Source: an uncultured Gaiellales bacterium (GTDB lineage: Bacteria; Actinomycetota; Thermoleophilia; RBG-16-64-13). Taken from it: DNA of 64,000 nucleotides. A program made the position numbers and the translations under genes. This document shows, in pieces, positions 16,011-31,784 of the stretch. The stretch lies in contig CAZQDY010000004.1 in assembly GCA_964592075.1 (NCBI GenBank), positions 16,527 through 80,526 on the forward strand, given 5' to 3'. Under the pieces are notes generated by a model, which worked only from the letters and a program-made list of their open reading frames with translations, was not told where the DNA came from and made no database searches. How positions within the stretch are numbered: the stretch's first letter is position 1; every line of letters begins with the position of its first letter.

Positions 16011-17225
16011 GTGGGCATGGAGAGGTACCTGGTCAAAGACAACATCTGGTGGGTGGGGGCGATCGATTGGGACCGCCGCGACTTTCACGGCTACGACACC
16101 GTTCGAGGCACCACCTACAACGCGTACCTGATACTCGACGAGAAGGTCGCGCTCATTGACGGATGCCGGGACGGGTTCGGGGAGGAGATGCTGGCACGCG
16201 TCCGCGGCTGCTGCGGCCTGCGCCCCGTCGACTATGTGGTGATAAACCATGTGGAGCCCGATCACTCCGGAGCTCTGCCTATGTTGGTGGAGGAGCTCGG
16301 CCCGGAGCGCGTTCTCTGCTCCAAGCGGGCCAAAGACGCGCTGGCCCTGTACTACGGGACCGACATGGTGGAGGGCTGGGACCTCCGGATCGTGGCCACC
16401 GGAGACGAGCTCTCTCTGGGCCGGAACACGCTGCAGTTCATCGAGGCGCCGATGCTGCACTGGCCCGACAGCATGTTCACGTACGTCAAAGAGGCCAAGA
16501 CCCTGCTCCCCAACGATGCCTTCGGGCAGCATCTCGCCACCTCCAGGCGGTTTGTCGATGAGGTCGACATGAGCATCGTCATGGAGGAGGCCGGCAAGTA
16601 CTACGCCAACATACTCCTGCCCTTCGGCGGTCAGATCCAGAGGATGCTCGCCAAGATCGGCGAGATGGGGTTGGAGATCGAGGCGATCGGCCCCAGTCAC
16701 GGCGTCGTGTGGAGACGGCCGGAGGACGTCACCCGGATCGTGGAGGCGTACGCGGCCTGGAGCGCCTCCAAGGCCCCTGAGCGGGTCACGATCGTCTACG
16801 ACACCATGTGGCACGCCACCGAGAAGATGACCATGGCCATCGAGGATGGCGTGGCCCAAGAGGGAGTGGATTGCGCCGTACTCAGGATGAGCGTGAGCCC
16901 TCGCTCGGAGGCGATGCATCAGATTCTGCAGTCGCGGGCCTTTCTCGTGGGCTCGCCCACGCTCAACAACGGTGTCTTCCCCACCATCGGCGGGTTCCTG
17001 ACCTATCTCAAAGGCCTGCGGCCCAGGGACAGGATAGCGGGAGCTTATGGTTCGTGCGGATGGGCCGGTGGCGCGGTCAAGCAGATCGATTCCGACCTGC
17101 GGGAGATGGGTCTGGAGGTCATGGCTCCCATGGAGATCAAGTACATGCCGGGTCCCGACGAACTCGATGCATGTGTGCAGCTTGGACGTGAAGTGGCCCG
17201 CAAAGTGAAGGCCATGGGAGGTTGA
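16011..17225 (+). CDS. flavodiiron protein (FprA / type A flavoprotein; O2 and/or NO reductase)
   Basis: Metallo-beta-lactamase-like diiron domain (HVEPDHSGALP, DTVRGTTYNAYLILDEK) followed by a C-terminal flavodoxin-like domain. 404 aa. Confidence 0.85.
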   Translation: MGMERYLVKDNIWWVGAIDWDRRDFHGYDTVRGTTYNAYLILDEKVALIDGCRDGFGEEMLARVRGCCGLRPVDYVVINHVEPDHSGALPMLVEELGPERVLCSKRAKDALALYYGTDMVEGWDLRIVATGDELSLGRNTLQFIEAPMLHWPDSMFTYVKEAKTLLPNDAFGQHLATSRRFVDEVDMSIVMEEAGKYYANILLPFGGQIQRMLAKIGEMGLEIEAIGPSHGVVWRRPEDVTRIVEAYAAWSASKAPERVTIVYDTMWHATEKMTMAIEDGVAQEGVDCAVLRMSVSPRSEAMHQILQSRAFLVGSPTLNNGVFPTIGGFLTYLKGLRPRDRIAGAYGSCGWAGGAVKQIDSDLREMGLEVMAPMEIKYMPGPDELDACVQLGREVARKVKAMGG

Positions 17226-24480: not shown

Positions 24481-25926
24481 GTGCGCATCACCCTGATTGA
24501 ACCTGCTGCCCCGGGCTTCCACGTATACAGCTTCGTCAAGCAGATCCGCATGGGTCTACCTCTTCTCGGAGCCTTGATGACCGCCCGTGGGCATGAGGTG
24601 CGGATCTACGCCGAGAGCCTGAGCGAGGTCGACTGGGACGACGTCCTCAAGTCCGACCTGGTGGGCATCTCCACCACCACGTCCACCGTCATCCGGGCCT
24701 ACCGGTATGCCCAGAAGGTCCGGGACGCGGGCATCCCGGTGGTCATGGGAGGGCCGCATGTCACGTTCCTGGCCGAAGAGGCGATGGATTTCTGCGACTA
24801 CGTCGTGCGCAACGAGGGCGAGGAGACTCTGGTCGAGCTCGTCGATCATCTGCAGGGGCGCGGGTCACTGGAGAACATCCTGGGGCTGACCTACCGGGCT
24901 GCGAATGGCGAGGTGGTGCACAACGCCGCCCGGCCGCTGCTCGACTCCCTGACCGAACTGCCGTGGCCCGATATGAGTCTGGTGGTGAACGGCGGCAAGG
25001 TGAGCCCCGCCCCCGTACTGGCTTCTCGAGGCTGCCCGTACGGTTGTGAGTTCTGCTCCGTGGTGTTGATGTTCGGGCGCAGGGTGCGGACCGTGGAACC
25101 GGTTGAGATCGTCAAGCACATCAAGCGGATGAAACCGCATAAGGTCTTCTTCTACGACGACAACTTCTTCATCAGCAAACGTAGGGGCAGGGAACTGCTG
25201 ACTGAGATGATAAAGCAGCGGCTCGACGTGCCGTTCTTCGCTCAGATCAGGGTGGATTCGGTCTATAAGAACGGTCAGAAGGACACCGAACTGCTCGACC
25301 TCTTGTGGAACGCGGGCTGTCGCATCGTCTACCTGGGCCTGGAGTCAGCCAATCCCGAGACTCTCAAGGAATACCACAAGGAATCAAGCATCGACGACAT
25401 GGCCGGGGGCCTGGAAGCGCTGCATCAAAGGGGGATCAAGACTCACGGCATGTTCGTGTTCGGCGCCGACTCGGATACTCCCGAATCCCTGCAGAAGACG
25501 GCGGAGTTCGCGGTGGACTACGGGCTCAACAGCGCCCAGTTCCTCATCCTCACCCCCCTTCCCGGCACCAGGCAGACCGCCCAACTCGAGACTGAGGGCC
25601 GGATCTTCACGAAGAACTACAGCTTGTACGATGGTCATCACGTGGTGCACTGGCCCAAGCAGATGACCCCGTACGAGTTGCAGGAGGCCGCGCTCAGCGC
25701 ACACAAACGCTTCTACACCGCCCGGCGCATTCTCAACCCTAGGCCCAAGACTCCCATGTATCACAAGCACCAGGTGGAGGGGTATCTGATGAGTAGGGCT
25801 TGGGAGCACGTCCGGGAGAACCGAGAGTACCTGCGCGAGCTGAAGGAGTACTGTGACTCGCAGTATCCTCCCGCGTCCACGGGCCGCGTCTTCAGGCATT
25901 CGGACTTCGAGACCGTCACGCAGTAG
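24481..25926 (+). CDS. B12-binding domain radical SAM enzyme (class B), function unknown
   Basis: N-terminal cobalamin-binding-like domain, then radical SAM cluster motif ASRGCPYGCEFC (Cx3Cx2C). GTG start with GAGG RBS. Confidence 0.8.
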   Translation: MRITLIEPAAPGFHVYSFVKQIRMGLPLLGALMTARGHEVRIYAESLSEVDWDDVLKSDLVGISTTTSTVIRAYRYAQKVRDAGIPVVMGGPHVTFLAEEAMDFCDYVVRNEGEETLVELVDHLQGRGSLENILGLTYRAANGEVVHNAARPLLDSLTELPWPDMSLVVNGGKVSPAPVLASRGCPYGCEFCSVVLMFGRRVRTVEPVEIVKHIKRMKPHKVFFYDDNFFISKRRGRELLTEMIKQRLDVPFFAQIRVDSVYKNGQKDTELLDLLWNAGCRIVYLGLESANPETLKEYHKESSIDDMAGGLEALHQRGIKTHGMFVFGADSDTPESLQKTAEFAVDYGLNSAQFLILTPLPGTRQTAQLETEGRIFTKNYSLYDGHHVVHWPKQMTPYELQEAALSAHKRFYTARRILNPRPKTPMYHKHQVEGYLMSRAWEHVRENREYLRELKEYCDSQYPPASTGRVFRHSDFETVTQ

Positions 25927-26036
25927 CCGTCCGCCCGGCAGGTCCTGCTTGCGCGCAGAGGATTTCCTGCACCCTTTGCGAAAGAGCTATCTAATACTGT
26001 TCGGCTCGGTGAAACGACAGATGCAGGGGAGATAGC

Positions 26037-26795
26037 TTGGCCAAGGTCGTGGCCTTCACGAATCAGAAGGGTGGAGTGGCGAAGACCACCACCACCCTCA
26101 ATCTCGGTGTGGCTTTGCAGGAGATGGGCCACCGCGTACTTGCGGTCGACCTGGATCCCCAGGGCAACCTCACCATGAGCCTTGGGCTGAACCCCGACTC
26201 CGTCAGGCCCAGCATGTACGACGTGCTCGTGAACGGGGTGAGCATCGAGAAGGCTCTGTTCCACCAGGAGCTCGACATCGCCGTCGCCAGTATCGACCTG
26301 GCCGCGGTGGAGATCGCCCTCAGCTCGCTGATCGGGCGGGAAAGGGCCCTCAGCAAGGCTCTCATGCAGGTGCAGGACAAGTACGACTACATCCTTATTG
26401 ACACGCCGCCTTCATTGGGACTGCTCACCATCAACGCACTCACGGCGTCCGACGCGCTCATAGTCCCCGTGCAGTGTGAGTATCTCTCCCTCCGCGGGCT
26501 GGCGCAGTTGGAGCGCACTCTCGAACTGGTGCGGGAGAACCTGAATCCCGACGTGCACATTGCCGGGATCGTGCCGACTATGTACGATGCACGCACGGTC
26601 CACGGGCGGGAGGCCGTCGAGGTGCTCAGAAACAGCTTCGGAGATCTGGTCTTCCAGACCACCATCAACAAGACCATCAGGTTCGCCGAGGCTCCCGTCA
26701 AAGGAGAATCGGTGTTGAAGTACGCGCCGGATAGTCAGGCTGCCAAAGCATATCGCCAGCTTGCGAGAGAGGTGCTCGATGGAAAAAAGATCTAG
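26037..26795 (+). CDS. ParA/Soj/MinD-superfamily P-loop ATPase (no parB partner nearby)
   Basis: Deviant Walker A NQKGGVAKTTTTLNLGVAL...VDLDPQGN. YDYILIDTPPSLGLLTINAL. TTG start with GGGGAG RBS. Stop is 1 nt before the ftsZ ATG. Confidence 0.85.
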   Translation: MAKVVAFTNQKGGVAKTTTTLNLGVALQEMGHRVLAVDLDPQGNLTMSLGLNPDSVRPSMYDVLVNGVSIEKALFHQELDIAVASIDLAAVEIALSSLIGRERALSKALMQVQDKYDYILIDTPPSLGLLTINALTASDALIVPVQCEYLSLRGLAQLERTLELVRENLNPDVHIAGIVPTMYDARTVHGREAVEVLRNSFGDLVFQTTINKTIRFAEAPVKGESVLKYAPDSQAAKAYRQLAREVLDGKKI

Positions 26796-26796
26796 C

Positions 26797-28176
26797 ATGA
26801 AGGACAGCGGCCTCAGCTCTCTCTTCAGGGCGACGGAGGCGGCACGGCCGGTGGCAGAGGAGCCCACACCCGGTATGCCGGAGACCGAGCAGGCTCCGGT
26901 CCAACCCGAGCCCGAACCGGCGCCTGAGCCCGTCGGCCAGACTGAAGAGTCCGGCGGCCCGGCGGAAGAGGAGATCCCGGTCGACGAGCCGCGTCCGGCG
27001 GATACCCTGTTCGGTTCCGCCGCGCCGACCGATGCCGGGCGCCGCACGCTCATACCGCCCTCGCGAAGCTTCCCGGCCGTCATCAGGGTGGTCGGTGTGG
27101 GGGGCGCGGGGACCAACGCCATCAACCGCATGCTCGAAGCGGGGCTCGAGGGTGTGGAGTTCATCGCCGTCAACACCGACGCTCAGGCTCTCGCCATGTG
27201 CGACGCCGACCACAAGCTCCGCATCGGCAAGGACCTGACCAAGGGATTGGGCGGGGGATCCGACCCCAAGGTGGGGCGCGATGCTGCGCTGGCGGCTTAT
27301 GACGAGATCAAGAACGTCCTTCGGGGCAGCGACATGGTATTCATCACAGCCGGGGAAGGAGGCGGCACCGGGACCGGTGCCGCGCCGGTGGTGGCCGAGA
27401 TCGCCCGGTCCCTGGGGGCGCTGACCATAGGCGTGGTGTCGCGACCCTTCTCCTTCGAAGGCAAGCGGCGGGGTCTGCAGGCCCTGGAGGGGGCGCGACA
27501 GCTCAAACAGCGGGCCGACACGGTCATCGTGGTGCCGAACGACAAACTGCTCGAGGTGGCCGACCGGAACACGACCATGGTCGCCGCGTTGCGCCTGGCG
27601 GACGACGTGCTGAGGCAGGGAGTGCAGGGTATCTGCGACCTGGTCACCGTGCCGGGTTTGATCAATCTGGACCTGGCCGACGTGCGGACCATCATGAGCG
27701 GAGCCGGCACCGCGCACATGGGCATCGGCAACGCCCACGGCGAAGGCCGGGCCAAGAGAGCCGCCGAGATGGCCCTCAACTCGTCCCTGCTCGAGACCTC
27801 CATCGACGGCGCCCGCGGCATCCTCCTCAACATCAGCGGGGGCTCCGAGATGTCCCTGCACGAGATCAACGAGGTGGCGGAGACAGTGAGCGAGGCCGCC
27901 GAGCCCGAAGCCAACATCATCTTCGGCGCAGTGGTGGACGAATCGCTGGGAGACAGCCTCTGGGTGACGGTGGTGGCGACCGGCTTCGACGCGACCAGTG
28001 AGGACGTGCTCACCGCCCAGGTGGAAGAAGCGACCAGGCATGACCGCTCCGGGGAGCACCCCGCCCGGGAGGCTCCCGTGGCGGAGCCGGCGGAAGAGGA
28101 GTTCCAGGGGACTCCTCGGACGACGAGCACCGGGCCCGACGACGACGAGCTCGAGGTCCCGCAGTTCCTACGCTAG
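26797..28176 (+). CDS. ftsZ: FtsZ with ~100-aa Pro/Glu-rich disordered N-terminal extension
   Basis: Canonical FtsZ core: VVGVGGAGTNAINRM, tubulin signature GEGGGTGTGAAPVVAEIA, T7 loop NLDLADVRTIM, C-terminal conserved peptide DDELEVPQFLR. ATG at 26797 follows the parA-like stop (TAG-c-ATG). The ORF track extends to 26761, overlapping parA. Confidence 0.85.
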   Translation: MKDSGLSSLFRATEAARPVAEEPTPGMPETEQAPVQPEPEPAPEPVGQTEESGGPAEEEIPVDEPRPADTLFGSAAPTDAGRRTLIPPSRSFPAVIRVVGVGGAGTNAINRMLEAGLEGVEFIAVNTDAQALAMCDADHKLRIGKDLTKGLGGGSDPKVGRDAALAAYDEIKNVLRGSDMVFITAGEGGGTGTGAAPVVAEIARSLGALTIGVVSRPFSFEGKRRGLQALEGARQLKQRADTVIVVPNDKLLEVADRNTTMVAALRLADDVLRQGVQGICDLVTVPGLINLDLADVRTIMSGAGTAHMGIGNAHGEGRAKRAAEMALNSSLLETSIDGARGILLNISGGSEMSLHEINEVAETVSEAAEPEANIIFGAVVDESLGDSLWVTVVATGFDATSEDVLTAQVEEATRHDRSGEHPAREAPVAEPAEEEFQGTPRTTSTGPDDDELEVPQFLR

Positions 28177-28635
28177 ACCGGGCGGATCGGCGCGCAGGTC
28201 GCGCTCGAAGTACAGGCAGCTCTTCTCAGCGAGGCCCAGGCTGCGATAGAAGGTGTGCGCGTCCAGGTTCCAGTACTCGGCCAGGAGGTAGAGCCTGGAG
28301 CAGCCCCTGGCCCGGGCGACCTCCTCGGCCGCGCGCAGGAGCCCCCGGCCCACCTCGGCTCGACGATGATCCTGGGCGACCACCACGTCTTGGAGTTCGC
28401 ACACGGGCGCTGCCGACCAGGTGCTCTCTGAGAAGACCAGGGCGCACATGCCCACCAGGGCATCTTCGTCTTCAGCCACCAGGAACATGTGATTGGATGC
28501 GGCTATGATGGTGGACACGACGGCGCTCAGACGCCCGGGTTCGGGGGGGACGACCCCGTGATGCTCCATGATCTCCTCGAGCAGCGCGAGGAGGCCGGGG
28601 ACATCTGATGGAACGGCTTGCCGGTGGTTGATCAT
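28168..28635 (-). CDS. GNAT family N-acetyltransferase
   Basis: Acetyl-CoA-binding motif region QDHRRAEVGRGLLRAAEE...RLYLL. 155 aa. Confidence 0.75.
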   Translation of the reverse strand: MINHRQAVPSDVPGLLALLEEIMEHHGVVPPEPGRLSAVVSTIIAASNHMFLVAEDEDALVGMCALVFSESTWSAAPVCELQDVVVAQDHRRAEVGRGLLRAAEEVARARGCSRLYLLAEYWNLDAHTFYRSLGLAEKSCLYFERDLRADPPGLA

Positions 28636-30563: not shown

Positions 30564-31784
30564 GTGAATCGATCGACGACTGGTGCGAGCATGACCGAGG
30601 TGGGTCGCGACAGTGGCGTGGACGGTGGGCGGCGGCTGAGGGTCTGGGCTCTCGAGCCCTACTTCGGCGGTTCGCACAAGGCCCATCTCGATGGCCTCAA
30701 GCGCTACTCCGGCCACGACTTCACCCTCTTGACGCTACCGGGGCGCTTCTGGAAATGGCGCATGCACGGGGGAGCTTTGTCTCTTGCCAGGCGCGTCGAC
30801 CAGGCCGTGGCCTCCACCGCCCAGGCTCACCCTCAGGTGCTCTTCGTTTCGGACATGCTCGACCTCCCGGTCTTCCTGGCGGCGGGGGGTCCGGGTCTCG
30901 CCCGGGTGCCGGCGATCCTCTACTTCCACGAGAACCAGCTCACCTATCCCTTGCCCCCCGGGGTGGGGCGTGACCTCGACTACGGGTTCAGGAACCTGAC
31001 CAGCGCTCTGGTAGCCCAGAGGGTCCTCTTCAACAGCGAGTATCACCGGCGGGAGTTCTTCGCCGCGGCAGCCGATCTGCTCCAGGCCATGCCCGACGAG
31101 GTGCCCCTCTGGGTCCTGGATGACGTGGCGGCGAAGGCCGGCGTGCTCCATGTGGGGTGCGATCTCCGCCGCTTGGACCGCCACCGCTCGCGGGCTTTGT
31201 CCGACGCGGCCGCCGGCCGGTGGGGCGACCCGTCCGCGGGACCTCTGCTCTTGTGGAACGCCCGCTGGGAATACGACAAAGCTCCCGGCGACCTGTTCGA
31301 GGCCCTGTACGCACTGAAGGCCTCAGGCGCCGGCTTTCGCCTGGCCATGGCCGGGCCCAACCAGGGCACGCCCACGGCCGAGTTCCTTCGGGCCAGTGTC
31401 GAACTGCGGGACCGGATCGTACAGTGGGGCAAGGTGGCCGAGTCTTCCGACTATGCCTCTCTGCTGTGGGCCTCGGACGTGGTTGTCTCCACCGCCATAC
31501 ACGAGTTCTTCGGGGTGGCGGCGGTGGAGGCGATGTACTGCGGATGCCGCCCCGTGCTGCCTCGGCGGCTGAGCTATCCTGAACTCGTCCCTGCCGAAGC
31601 GCATGGGGATGTGCTATACGGGGAAGGAGAGCTGGTGACGGCGCTGGCCCGGGCGCTGGCGGCGCCGCGCGCTTGGCCTGAGGACCGGCAGCGCGCCTGG
31701 GTCTCCCGCTTCGACTGGGCACACCTGATTGACCGGTACGACGAGGAGATCCAACGCTGTTGGCAAAGTGCGACCCCGGCGTGA
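30564..31784 (+). CDS. glycosyltransferase family 4 with N-terminal DUF3524 domain
   Basis: DUF3524-like LEPYFGGSHKAHLDGL. GT4 C-terminal motif EFFGVAAVEAMYCGCRPVLP. Start GTG 30564 or ATG 30591. Confidence 0.6.
   Translation: MNRSTTGASMTEVGRDSGVDGGRRLRVWALEPYFGGSHKAHLDGLKRYSGHDFTLLTLPGRFWKWRMHGGALSLARRVDQAVASTAQAHPQVLFVSDMLDLPVFLAAGGPGLARVPAILYFHENQLTYPLPPGVGRDLDYGFRNLTSALVAQRVLFNSEYHRREFFAAAADLLQAMPDEVPLWVLDDVAAKAGVLHVGCDLRRLDRHRSRALSDAAAGRWGDPSAGPLLLWNARWEYDKAPGDLFEALYALKASGAGFRLAMAGPNQGTPTAEFLRASVELRDRIVQWGKVAESSDYASLLWASDVVVSTAIHEFFGVAAVEAMYCGCRPVLPRRLSYPELVPAEAHGDVLYGEGELVTALARALAAPRAWPEDRQRAWVSRFDWAHLIDRYDEEIQRCWQSATPA

Follow-up and report, generated by a model that had tools for sequence, protein, structure and literature searches.

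A second FtsZ encoded beside an orphan ParA in Thermoleophilia carries a putative ParA-partner peptide

The pair and its closest described counterparts

The subject of this analysis is a pair of adjacent genes, parA2 and ftsZ2, at positions 26037 to 28176 of a stretch of 64,000 nucleotides (the window; positions 16,527 to 80,526 of contig CAZQDY010000004.1, forward strand, here contig C4) from assembly GCA_964592075.1 of an uncultured Gaiellales bacterium of the class Thermoleophilia, the assembly measuring 2.86 Mb with a completeness of 95%. The first gene codes for an orphan ATPase of the ParA family and the second for an additional FtsZ that bears an N-terminal extension, and several described systems resemble the pair in part.

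Partners of ParA-family ATPases such as ParB, ParG, MinE, McdB and PomX engage the ATP-bound dimer through an N-terminal peptide and stimulate hydrolysis, and tagged multivalent cargos become positioned on the nucleoid. ParA/MinD partners are described as acting via a short charged N-terminal peptide on a disordered region (PMC10241942), the ParB motif at the ParA dimer interface consisting of hydrophobic residues and one central Arg or Lys (PMC12462528). The organization of parA2 and ftsZ2 recalls the type Ib systems, including ParF-ParG of plasmid TP228 and delta-omega of pSM19035, in which the ATPase gene is followed by the gene of a partner whose folded domain is preceded by a disordered stretch with a short peptide at the N-terminus, and for which stimulation of the ATPase by the ParG tail is given as established in work cited by PMC12462528. 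The small partners of related actinobacterial ATPases, dealt with below, also model as ribbon-helix-helix (RHH) proteins. On the contrary, the folded domain in the window is a full FtsZ and not a DNA-binding RHH, with no centromere implied, and ParA2 and FtsZ2 are chromosomal and class-wide instead of plasmid-borne.

A further likeness is found with the orphan ParAs Rv1708/MSMEG_3743 of Mycobacterium and PldP (Cg1610) of C. glutamicum, considering that (i) the closest solved relative of ParA2 is the mycobacterial orphan ParA 4pfs, (ii) its identity to orphan ParAs of other classes is 50-56%, and (iii) the parA-X-scpA-scpB-pseudouridine synthase context is present in one Thermoleophilia family. 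Placement of the Z-ring in Actinomycetota, which lack Min and nucleoid-occlusion proteins, is an old question, and orphan ParAs disturb septum placement, cells being reported to filament when the ATPase is overexpressed and to form asymmetric septa when it is deleted (PMC10482377; 10.1101/2025.07.02.662783), by a mechanism not known either for Rv1708/MSMEG_3743, encoded beside scpA, or for PldP of Corynebacterium. These organisms differ from Thermoleophilia in that the downstream partner, where present, is a small RHH protein, or scpA follows directly, and no link to FtsZ is reported.

Regarding FtsZ itself, two systems are of interest. MipZ of Caulobacter binds FtsZ directly and inhibits its polymerisation; it is alike as a ParA-family ATPase acting on FtsZ without a MinC-like intermediary in a bacterium devoid of Min and Noc, but it is tethered by ParB and acts on a single canonical FtsZ without special tag, whereas in Thermoleophilia FtsZ itself bears the partner peptide. 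In the PomXYZ system of Myxococcus xanthus, nucleoid-bound PomZ positions a multivalent midcell assembly to which FtsZ is then recruited, the activators acting via short N-terminal peptides (PMC7993993); the difference here is that PomZ needs two activator/scaffold proteins and recruits FtsZ indirectly, whereas the parA2/ftsZ2 locus has no adaptor gene and the tag resides on an FtsZ paralogue. An analogy with MipZ or PomZ had been put forward in a preliminary description of the window, and it is reasonable as regards function, while the suggested coupling, a partner tag fused to FtsZ, differs from both. Finally, FtsZ1/FtsZ3 of Hyphomicrobiales, FtsZ1/FtsZ2 of archaea and plastids and the extended FtsZ of cyanobacteria share with this locus a long-retained second FtsZ with a presumed division of labour (10.1101/2025.09.29.679267), but such paralogues are often C-terminally truncated, have no ParA gene link, and none is described with a ParA-partner tag.

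No published description of the ParA2/FtsZ2 pair or of the ftsZ duplication in Thermoleophilia was found within an incomplete coverage of the literature, and an FtsZ that itself carries a ParA-partner tag is, as far as found, undescribed. From the sequence comparisons presented below, it is considered moderately probable that FtsZ2 is a client of ParA2 whose placement nucleoid-bound ParA2 sets, the two genes forming a vertically inherited module of the class.

A second parA-ftsZ pair kept across Thermoleophilia

The canonical ftsZ of the genome (FtsZ1, 366 aa, 440.8 bits) lies on contig C5 within a division and cell wall (dcw) cluster of the order murF-mraY-ftsW-murG-murC-murB-ftsQ-ftsZ-pgeF, with the genome's only sepF just downstream, and a canonical mnmE-mnmG-rsmG-parA-parB locus is found on contig C8. 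Thus, parA2 and ftsZ2 constitute an extra pair. This agrees with the preliminary description, which had read the ATPase as an orphan and the FtsZ as lying outside the dcw context, had named a second specialised paralogue as one possibility, and had found the surroundings free of dcw genes, sepF and parB, all of which proved to lie on other contigs. The contrary scenario, an only ftsZ next to a recently inserted parA, fails, since a dcw ftsZ is present and the pair is class-wide.

The nearest public records of the locus are metagenome-assembled genomes labelled Actinomycetota, Thermoleophilia, Gaiellales, Gaiellaceae or 'Actinobacteria bacterium RBG_16_64_13', and near-identical locus DNA occurs in bioreactor, wastewater and biogas metagenomes. 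Two ftsZ genes were present in all 41 relatives first sampled. Among 121 genomes of the class at least 90% complete, a ParA2 orthologue (identity of at least 61%) is encoded exactly once in 116, covering 63 of 64 genera and ten families. Adjacency of parA2 and ftsZ2, which the preliminary description had proposed to look for in relatives, is kept across the class: it holds in 24/24 genomes of the window's family, in 78 of 80 public loci (a contig edge cuts the remaining two), in 15 of the 16 loci sampled in six other families (the sixteenth being the dcw ftsZ copy) and in 30/30 further loci. The peptide-bearing FtsZ adjoins parA2 in every complete locus inspected, and this adjacency is far above chance.

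In 149 near-complete genomes of the phylum, two ftsZ genes were found only in Thermoleophilia (11/11) and in one other family, and the ParA2/FtsZ2 pair only in Thermoleophilia. The ftsZ survey includes the unpublished genomes G041, G086, G124 and G154 (one ftsZ each) and the ParA survey G041, G086 and G124, with ftsZ and ParA matches used only as counts and no sequence taken from them.

The other family with two ftsZ genes (f34; loci L136-L144; genomes G084, G126, G139 and G164) shows two full-length tandem copies ~500 bp apart, without a ParA gene and falling into two long-branched clades. It looks like an independent duplication, and its identification with the event that produced FtsZ2 was rejected in view of the tandem copies, the missing ParA and the separate clades.

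In the FtsZ tree, FtsZ2 sequences form one clade (support 99/95) whose branching follows the families and whose branches are longer than those of FtsZ1; the tree does not settle the position of this clade among actinobacterial FtsZ. Branching within the ParA2 clade likewise tracks families. The FtsZ tree fits with the resident ftsZ having been duplicated once, at the root of the class or earlier, and inherited vertically since. Genes for a radical SAM protein, a GNAT, a D-amino-acid transaminase and nfo accompany the pair in the window's own family (19 loci) and are absent from 61 Gaiellaceae-type loci; they were dropped as candidate parts of the system because they are conserved only in that family, and the conserved unit is consequently parA2 and ftsZ2 alone.

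A peptide shared with small partners of orphan ParAs

The features of the pair are the following (coordinates of the window):

26025..26031, + strand: Shine-Dalgarno-like AGGGGAG, 5 nt before the TTG start of parA2 (read from the sequence)
26037..26795, + strand: parA2, orphan ParA/Soj-like deviant Walker A ATPase, 252 aa, TTG start, TAG stop at 26793-26795 (open reading frame and AAA_31 match)
26067..26087, + strand: deviant Walker A KGGVAKT in parA2, signature Lys11 and Lys16 (read from the sequence)
26765..26774, + strand: Shine-Dalgarno-like GAGAGAGGTG within the 3' end of parA2, GAGAGG at 26767-26772, 6 nt before ATG 26779 (read from the sequence)
26779..28176, + strand: ftsZ2, FtsZ paralogue, 465 aa from the likely ATG 26779, stop at 28174-28176 (TIGR00065 match)
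26779..26844, + strand: N-terminal peptide of FtsZ2, aa 1-22, MEKRSSMKDSGLSSLFRATEAA, proposed ParA2-binding tag (class-wide conservation)
26845..27072, + strand: disordered linker of FtsZ2, aa 23-98 (composition, AlphaFold2 pLDDT, not conserved in orthologues)
27073..28023, + strand: globular core of FtsZ2, aa 99-415 (Pfam Tubulin and FtsZ_C; AlphaFold2 pLDDT 86-98)
27358-27378, + strand: G-box GGGTGTG of the core (seen in the sequence)
27664-27681, + strand: T7 loop NLDLAD of the core (seen in the sequence)
28024..28137, + strand: C-terminal variable linker of FtsZ2, aa 416-453 (conservation 0.20, low pLDDT)
28138..28173, + strand: conserved C-terminal peptide of FtsZ2, DDDELEVPQFLR (read from the sequence)

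The TTG start of parA2 concurs with the orthologous proteins, which begin MAKVVAF at the same point of the alignment. The ftsZ2 frame, uninterrupted between 26761 and its stop codon at 28174-28176, offers ATG codons at 26779 and 26797. The open reading frames confirm the coordinates of the preliminary description, a parA stop at 26793-26795 and the ATG of a complete FtsZ 1 nt past it, but this second ATG is probably not the start, as several orthologues have Ile or Leu in place of the methionine at 26797, the six codons ahead of it are conserved (MEKRSS / MARKRAS) and GAGAGG stands 6 nt upstream of the first ATG. Initiation at 26779 is thus most likely, giving 465 aa and a 17-nt overlap with parA2. 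The overlap measures 17-29 nt across the class (20-29 nt in Gaiellaceae-type loci), which suggests translational coupling of both genes. The 17 bases at 26779-26795 are read in two frames, ...LDGKKI-stop for ParA2 and MEKRSS for FtsZ2, both of them conserved in the family.

The FtsZ identity of the second protein is clear from TIGR00065 (402.5 bits vs a cut-off of 295.2, over aa 94-409 of the 459-aa reading) and from the Pfam domains Tubulin (E 2.8e-45) and FtsZ_C (E 4.8e-34). The GGGTGTG box, T7 loop and DDELEVPQFLR tail that had been pointed out earlier are all seen in the sequence; among orthologues, the G-box is kept in 37/38 and the NxDxxD motif in 38/38, and an L(D/E)(V/I)PxFL-like tail ends about 30/38 FtsZ2 and 23/23 FtsZ1 proteins. 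In other bacteria, SepF and further membrane anchors are bound through this C-terminal peptide. With its core 58% identical to FtsZ1, FtsZ2 is by its sequence a duplicate of the cell's own FtsZ and, because the GTP-binding box and the T7 catalytic loop are kept, it should still polymerise and hydrolyse GTP.

Alignment of the orthologues divides the region ahead of the FtsZ2 core into three zones, namely the N-terminal peptide, a variable linker and a brief conserved segment that runs into VIRVVGVGGAG. The peptide, of ~20 aa, reads MEKRSSMKDSGLSSLFRATE in the window's family and MARKRASMREGPLAELFRATEAAQ in Gaiellaceae-type genomes, and a variant outside the window's family reads MARKRASMREGPLAELFRATE; KDSGLSSLF and REGPLAELF are family variants within it. 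In an alignment of 31 sequences, S6, L15, F16 and T19 are invariant and R4 and L12 reach at least 90%, the mean share of the commonest residue per column being 0.64 for the peptide vs 0.25 for the linker. The linker of the window comprises 76 Pro/Glu/Ala-rich residues (79% P/E/A/T/G/S/Q/D, net charge -11), and those of the orthologues are hypervariable, acidic and ~20-165 aa long, with start-to-core distances of 45-185 aa. In an alignment-based AlphaFold2 model, residues 1-98 show a pLDDT of 39-58 with a lone helical turn at SLF and are thus predicted to be disordered. The extension of ~100 aa noticed earlier is therefore real and predicted disordered, but it is not merely of low complexity, as it includes a conserved peptide resembling a partner tag. 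The FtsZ2 N-terminus fits the definition of a ParA/MinD-partner peptide drawn from PMC10241942 and PMC12462528, being short, conserved, basic and hydrophobic, followed by disorder, and encoded directly after the ATPase gene.

ParA2 is matched by Pfam AAA_31 (E 1.3e-60, 204.8 bits) and contains the P-loop QKGGVAKTT with K11 and K16, KGGVAKTT being found in 40/40 FtsZ-linked ParAs examined. Its closest solved relatives are the mycobacterial orphan ParA 4pfs (2.8e-60) and Soj of T. thermophilus (6.8e-53), with MinD structures at ~1e-19. Its segment (K/R)T(I/V)RFAEA aligns with RLAEA/RLSEC of T. thermophilus Soj and another solved ParA, and presumably holds the DNA-binding arginine, corresponding to R189 of B. 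subtilis Soj. The protein ends ...YRQLAREVLDGKKI right after the last core helix, without the C-terminal membrane helix of MinD type. Both as MinD (TIGR01968, 71 bits vs a cut-off of 212.9) and as chromosomal Soj (NCBIfam ParA_partition, 122.5 bits vs a cut-off of 180) it falls below the mark, and no parB adjoins it. There are likewise no pomX- or pomY-like genes adjoining parA2, the profile libraries holding no curated PomZ model.

The ParA tree places all FtsZ-linked ParAs in one clade (100/99), apart from the clade of ParB-linked Soj proteins (100/99) that includes the class's own Soj, and contains two more clades of orphan ParAs from other classes. By its sequence, ParA2 has its nearest kin in the actinobacterial orphan ParAs of Rv1708/PldP type. 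An origin of ParA2 by duplication of the genome's own Soj was rejected, as ParA2 lies outside the Soj clade and is nearer to the orphans of other classes (50-56% identity) than to this Soj (43%).

In one of these orphan clades, here termed the third (100/100; L163, L165, L166, L168, L170 and L173), parA is followed by an overlapping small open reading frame with a conserved ...DPLGKxALFS... and a CxxC...CPxCG zinc-ribbon-like end. Its product may be another ParA partner.

In other classes of the phylum, a small open reading frame comes after the nearest relatives of parA2, overlapping their stop and opening with M-x-(K/R)-R-A-S-L-P-G-A-(D/E)-E-L-F-R-x-T. A motif written to include this form and that of FtsZ2 matches 12 of 40,766 six-frame open reading frames from the whole genome and 16 comparison loci, and the 12 are FtsZ2 and the small frame in 11/11 orphan-parA loci of other classes; it was found neither in 5 parA-parB loci nor elsewhere among the six-frame open reading frames of this genome. 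The layout of the small proteins is that of the FtsZ2 extension: the peptide, a variable linker of about 30-140 aa and a conserved domain of ~60 aa, predicted with pLDDT >88. Top matches of this domain with VIA-align are all RHH proteins, namely TraM (Z 6.2, root-mean-square deviation 2.2 over 53) and PutA (Z 5.1, 1.2 Å over 44), as well as omega, ParD and the centromere-binding protein ParB of pCXC100; the RHH assignment rests on these alignments, with middling Z of 4-6. Foldseek of the small-partner model against the PDB gave no match at E <=0.001, and a Pfam scan of the small partners no family at E <=1. As modelled, the small partner thus belongs with ParA partners like ParG and omega.

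At least 7,956 members, mostly named 'hypothetical' and without Pfam domain, belong to this small-partner family, which probably supplies ATPases of Rv1708/PldP type with their missing partner; no homologue was found in the window's genome. The small partners of the comparison loci (L146-L156, e.g. L150:5831-6172:+ and L156:4420-4995:-), with the N-terminal peptide RRASLPGA(D/E)ELFRxT, span many Actinomycetota, including a 9.2-Mb Streptomyces-like genome.

Gene order provides the remaining link. Where an orphan parA is followed by the small partner, scpA comes next at a distance of up to about 3 kb in 9 of 11 loci, and an arrangement with scpA beside the orphan ParA has been reported for MSMEG_3743/MSMEG_3742 of M. 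smegmatis (PMC10482377). One Thermoleophilia family (f3, locus L132) displays the order tgt-yajC-parA2-ftsZ2-scpA-scpB-pseudouridine synthase (PseudoU_synth_2), in which ftsZ2 fills the exact slot of the small partner. This parA-X-scpA-scpB-pseudouridine synthase locus is not kept in the window's family, where scpA is on contig C2. Slot and shared peptide together indicate that the tag and linker of a ParA partner became joined to an ftsZ copy at the parA-X-scpA-scpB locus, the pair having apparently moved off scpAB later in the window's family.

Possible action of the pair and its surroundings

If FtsZ2 is a client of ParA2, ATP-bound ParA2 dimers would sit on the nucleoid, and the FtsZ2 peptide would dock at their interface, as the peptides of ParB, ParG, MinE, McdB and PomX do, and stimulate ATP hydrolysis, FtsZ2 being probably an activator of ParA2. 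An FtsZ2 filament, multivalent because many tags on flexible tethers would be displayed, would then act as a cargo positioned by the ParA2 gradient relative to the chromosome, and FtsZ2 so positioned would seed or bias the division ring built with canonical FtsZ1 and SepF. Complex prediction with two ParA2 chains, two ATP and FtsZ2 residues 1-45 gave a score of 0.49 (runs 0.49, 0.49 and 0.52) against 0.00 for the best of three controls, the runs agreeing in at least 67% of contacts with a partner pLDDT of at least 53. In calibration, 51 of 78 solved complexes passed the mark, as did 2 of 108 mismatched pairs, but scores up to 0.60 comprise only 5 of the 78 solved complexes and all 4 passing mismatches; moreover, the job carried ATP, unlike the calibration set, and similar solved ParA-peptide complexes exist, so that the pass may be memory.

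Several observations weigh against this interpretation. The direction of control, recruitment or exclusion, is its least certain step. The verdict of the complex prediction was 'weak support', with no interface returned, and the modelling therefore lends weak support to binding of FtsZ2 by ParA2. The peptide is near neutral (four basic and three acidic residues) and less basic than many activating peptides. The KGGVAKTT box also occurs in four of six members of the third orphan clade, and the RHH-linked ParAs carry KGGVGKTT; the FtsZ-linked clade joins this third clade (85/94, weakly supported) and not the RHH-linked one. A constrained tree joining ParA2 with the RHH-linked orphan ParAs is not rejected (approximately unbiased test, p 0.2), and orthology of ParA2 to these ATPases rests on synteny and the peptide, because the ParA tree leaves the grouping open. 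The peptide motif is a regular expression drawn up with both sets already in view, and its specificity outweighs its sensitivity. A hidden Markov model of the FtsZ2 peptides alone, run on the six-frame open reading frames, returned only itself as significant, with the small partners at E 1-8; the best small-protein peptide, at E 1.2, is the top non-self match, a 2-residue indel splitting it. The weight of the argument lies consequently in positional coincidence and specificity. Regarding expression, exact-match contigs from four bioreactor metatranscriptome runs, which are short, without strand or level information and with DNA carry-over possible, fall on parA2 (26049-26585) and ftsZ2 (26841-27076 and 27494-28255); none among the four runs bridges 26779-26797, uncovered stretches being uninformative.

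Among other explanations, the most probable is inhibition, in which ParA2 on the nucleoid would hold FtsZ2 by its tag and block a ring over the chromosome, as in nucleoid occlusion or in the manner of MipZ. All the evidence coupling peptide and ParA2 fits it equally well, MipZ, the known direct FtsZ regulator of the ParA family, is an inhibitor, and Actinomycetota are without Min and Noc, no MinD being found above the cut-off in this genome. On the contrary, ParA2 does not resemble MipZ in particular: the Pfam MipZ profile gives 52.1 bits, well under the 204.8 of AAA_31 and only over profile positions 2-150 of 262, and no MipZ structure is among its PDB sequence matches at E <=1e-10. An inhibitor has, in addition, no obvious need of a dedicated, long-tethered FtsZ copy, and multivalent tagged assemblies are typical of cargos that become positioned, PomXYZ, carboxysomes and partition complexes among them (PMC7993993, PMC10241942). 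Inhibition is regarded as unlikely.

A role of the pair in chromosome organisation or segregation, with FtsZ2 replacing the RHH partner as a cytomotive or scaffold filament alongside ParA2 and ScpAB/SMC, is decidedly unlikely, despite the ancestral slot between an orphan parA and scpA-scpB, the probable DNA binding of the RHH protein replaced and the reported interaction of Rv1708 with ScpA and ParB (PMC10482377). It would leave without explanation the membrane-anchor peptide retained in most FtsZ2 orthologues and the closeness of the core to FtsZ1; besides, the pair is intact in the window's family though away from scpAB, and the phenotypes reported for orphan ParAs concern septum placement.

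It is very improbable that both genes are mere neighbours, the peptide binding another target (membrane, SepF, FtsZ1 or a regulator) and ParA2 having another partner. The weak complex prediction leaves room for it, as do the N-terminal extensions with other roles in cyanobacterial FtsZ, as they appear in work cited by 10.1101/2025.09.29.679267, and in the calibration only 7 of 44 blind neighbouring pairs reach the mark. However, the same peptide heads an unrelated RHH protein at the 11 related orphan-ParA loci, and its constant companion is therefore the ATPase and not FtsZ; the gene overlap is preserved across the class, the peptide is too acidic and has too few hydrophobic residues for a membrane-targeting helix, and no other candidate partner gene is conserved at parA2 across the class. 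Lastly, the chance that the extension is an annotation artefact, with the true start near VIRVVGVGGAG and a frame opened upstream by high G+C, is negligible, since, even though such DNA yields long spurious open frames, many of them in the window, the N-terminus is conserved between orthologues with cores only about 50-56% identical to that of the window (and the wrong-start scenario considered in the preliminary description thus fails), the frame from peptide to core is open in all loci despite several-fold differences in linker length, a Shine-Dalgarno-like site precedes ATG 26779, and no in-frame ATG, GTG or TTG exists from codon 37 (a Met of the linker) to the core except within VVGVGG.

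Returning to FtsZ2 as a client positioned by ParA2, the locus would be a natural 'Rosetta stone', in which a ParA-partner tag fused to FtsZ class-wide points to a direct, adaptor-free route from ParA to FtsZ. A wider proposal, possible but doubtful, is that Thermoleophilia position their division site by a minimal system devoid of adaptors, an FtsZ paralogue being at once cargo and ATPase activator of a nucleoid-bound ParA, and that, by the logic of natural gene fusions and provided that the reading of FtsZ2 is true, the widespread orphan ParA (Rv1708/PldP) with its small RHH partner would be revealed as the long-sought Z-ring positioning system of Actinomycetota. The peptide, of ~20 residues, can be synthesised and is directly testable. 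The locus also brings to light the large unnamed family of small RHH partners that Actinomycetota, Streptomyces-like ones included, encode next to the orphan ParA, and offers a natural case of the portable ParA 'luggage tag' already proposed for synthetic biology (PMC10241942).

The pair is flanked by the following genes, the radical SAM and GNAT neighbours of the preliminary description being borne out by profile matches:

24481-25926: B12-binding radical SAM gene, upstream neighbour (profile matches)
28168-28635, - strand: GNAT gene, downstream, convergent with ftsZ2 (profile matches)

All NCBIfam matches of the radical SAM gene are far under their cut-offs (best BchE-like, 136 bits vs 481). 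The GNAT gene and the 3' end of ftsZ2 have 9 nt in common (28168-28176), with no terminator-like hairpin between them, and a consensus scan of 25800-28400 found no promoter or terminator, such a scan being uninformative in an actinobacterium of 65% G+C. Farther neighbours past these two genes are gcvPA/gcvPB, the D-amino-acid transaminase, nfo and pgi; between nfo and pgi, positions 30564-31784 hold an open reading frame of 406 aa without NCBIfam match at E <=1e-20. Elsewhere in the same genome, contig C26:5180-7829 (L005, L006, L185-L189) contains two or three open reading frames with weak, partial P-loop matches of ParA/MinD type (AAA_31, 29-34 bits), which are unrelated to parA2 and ftsZ2.

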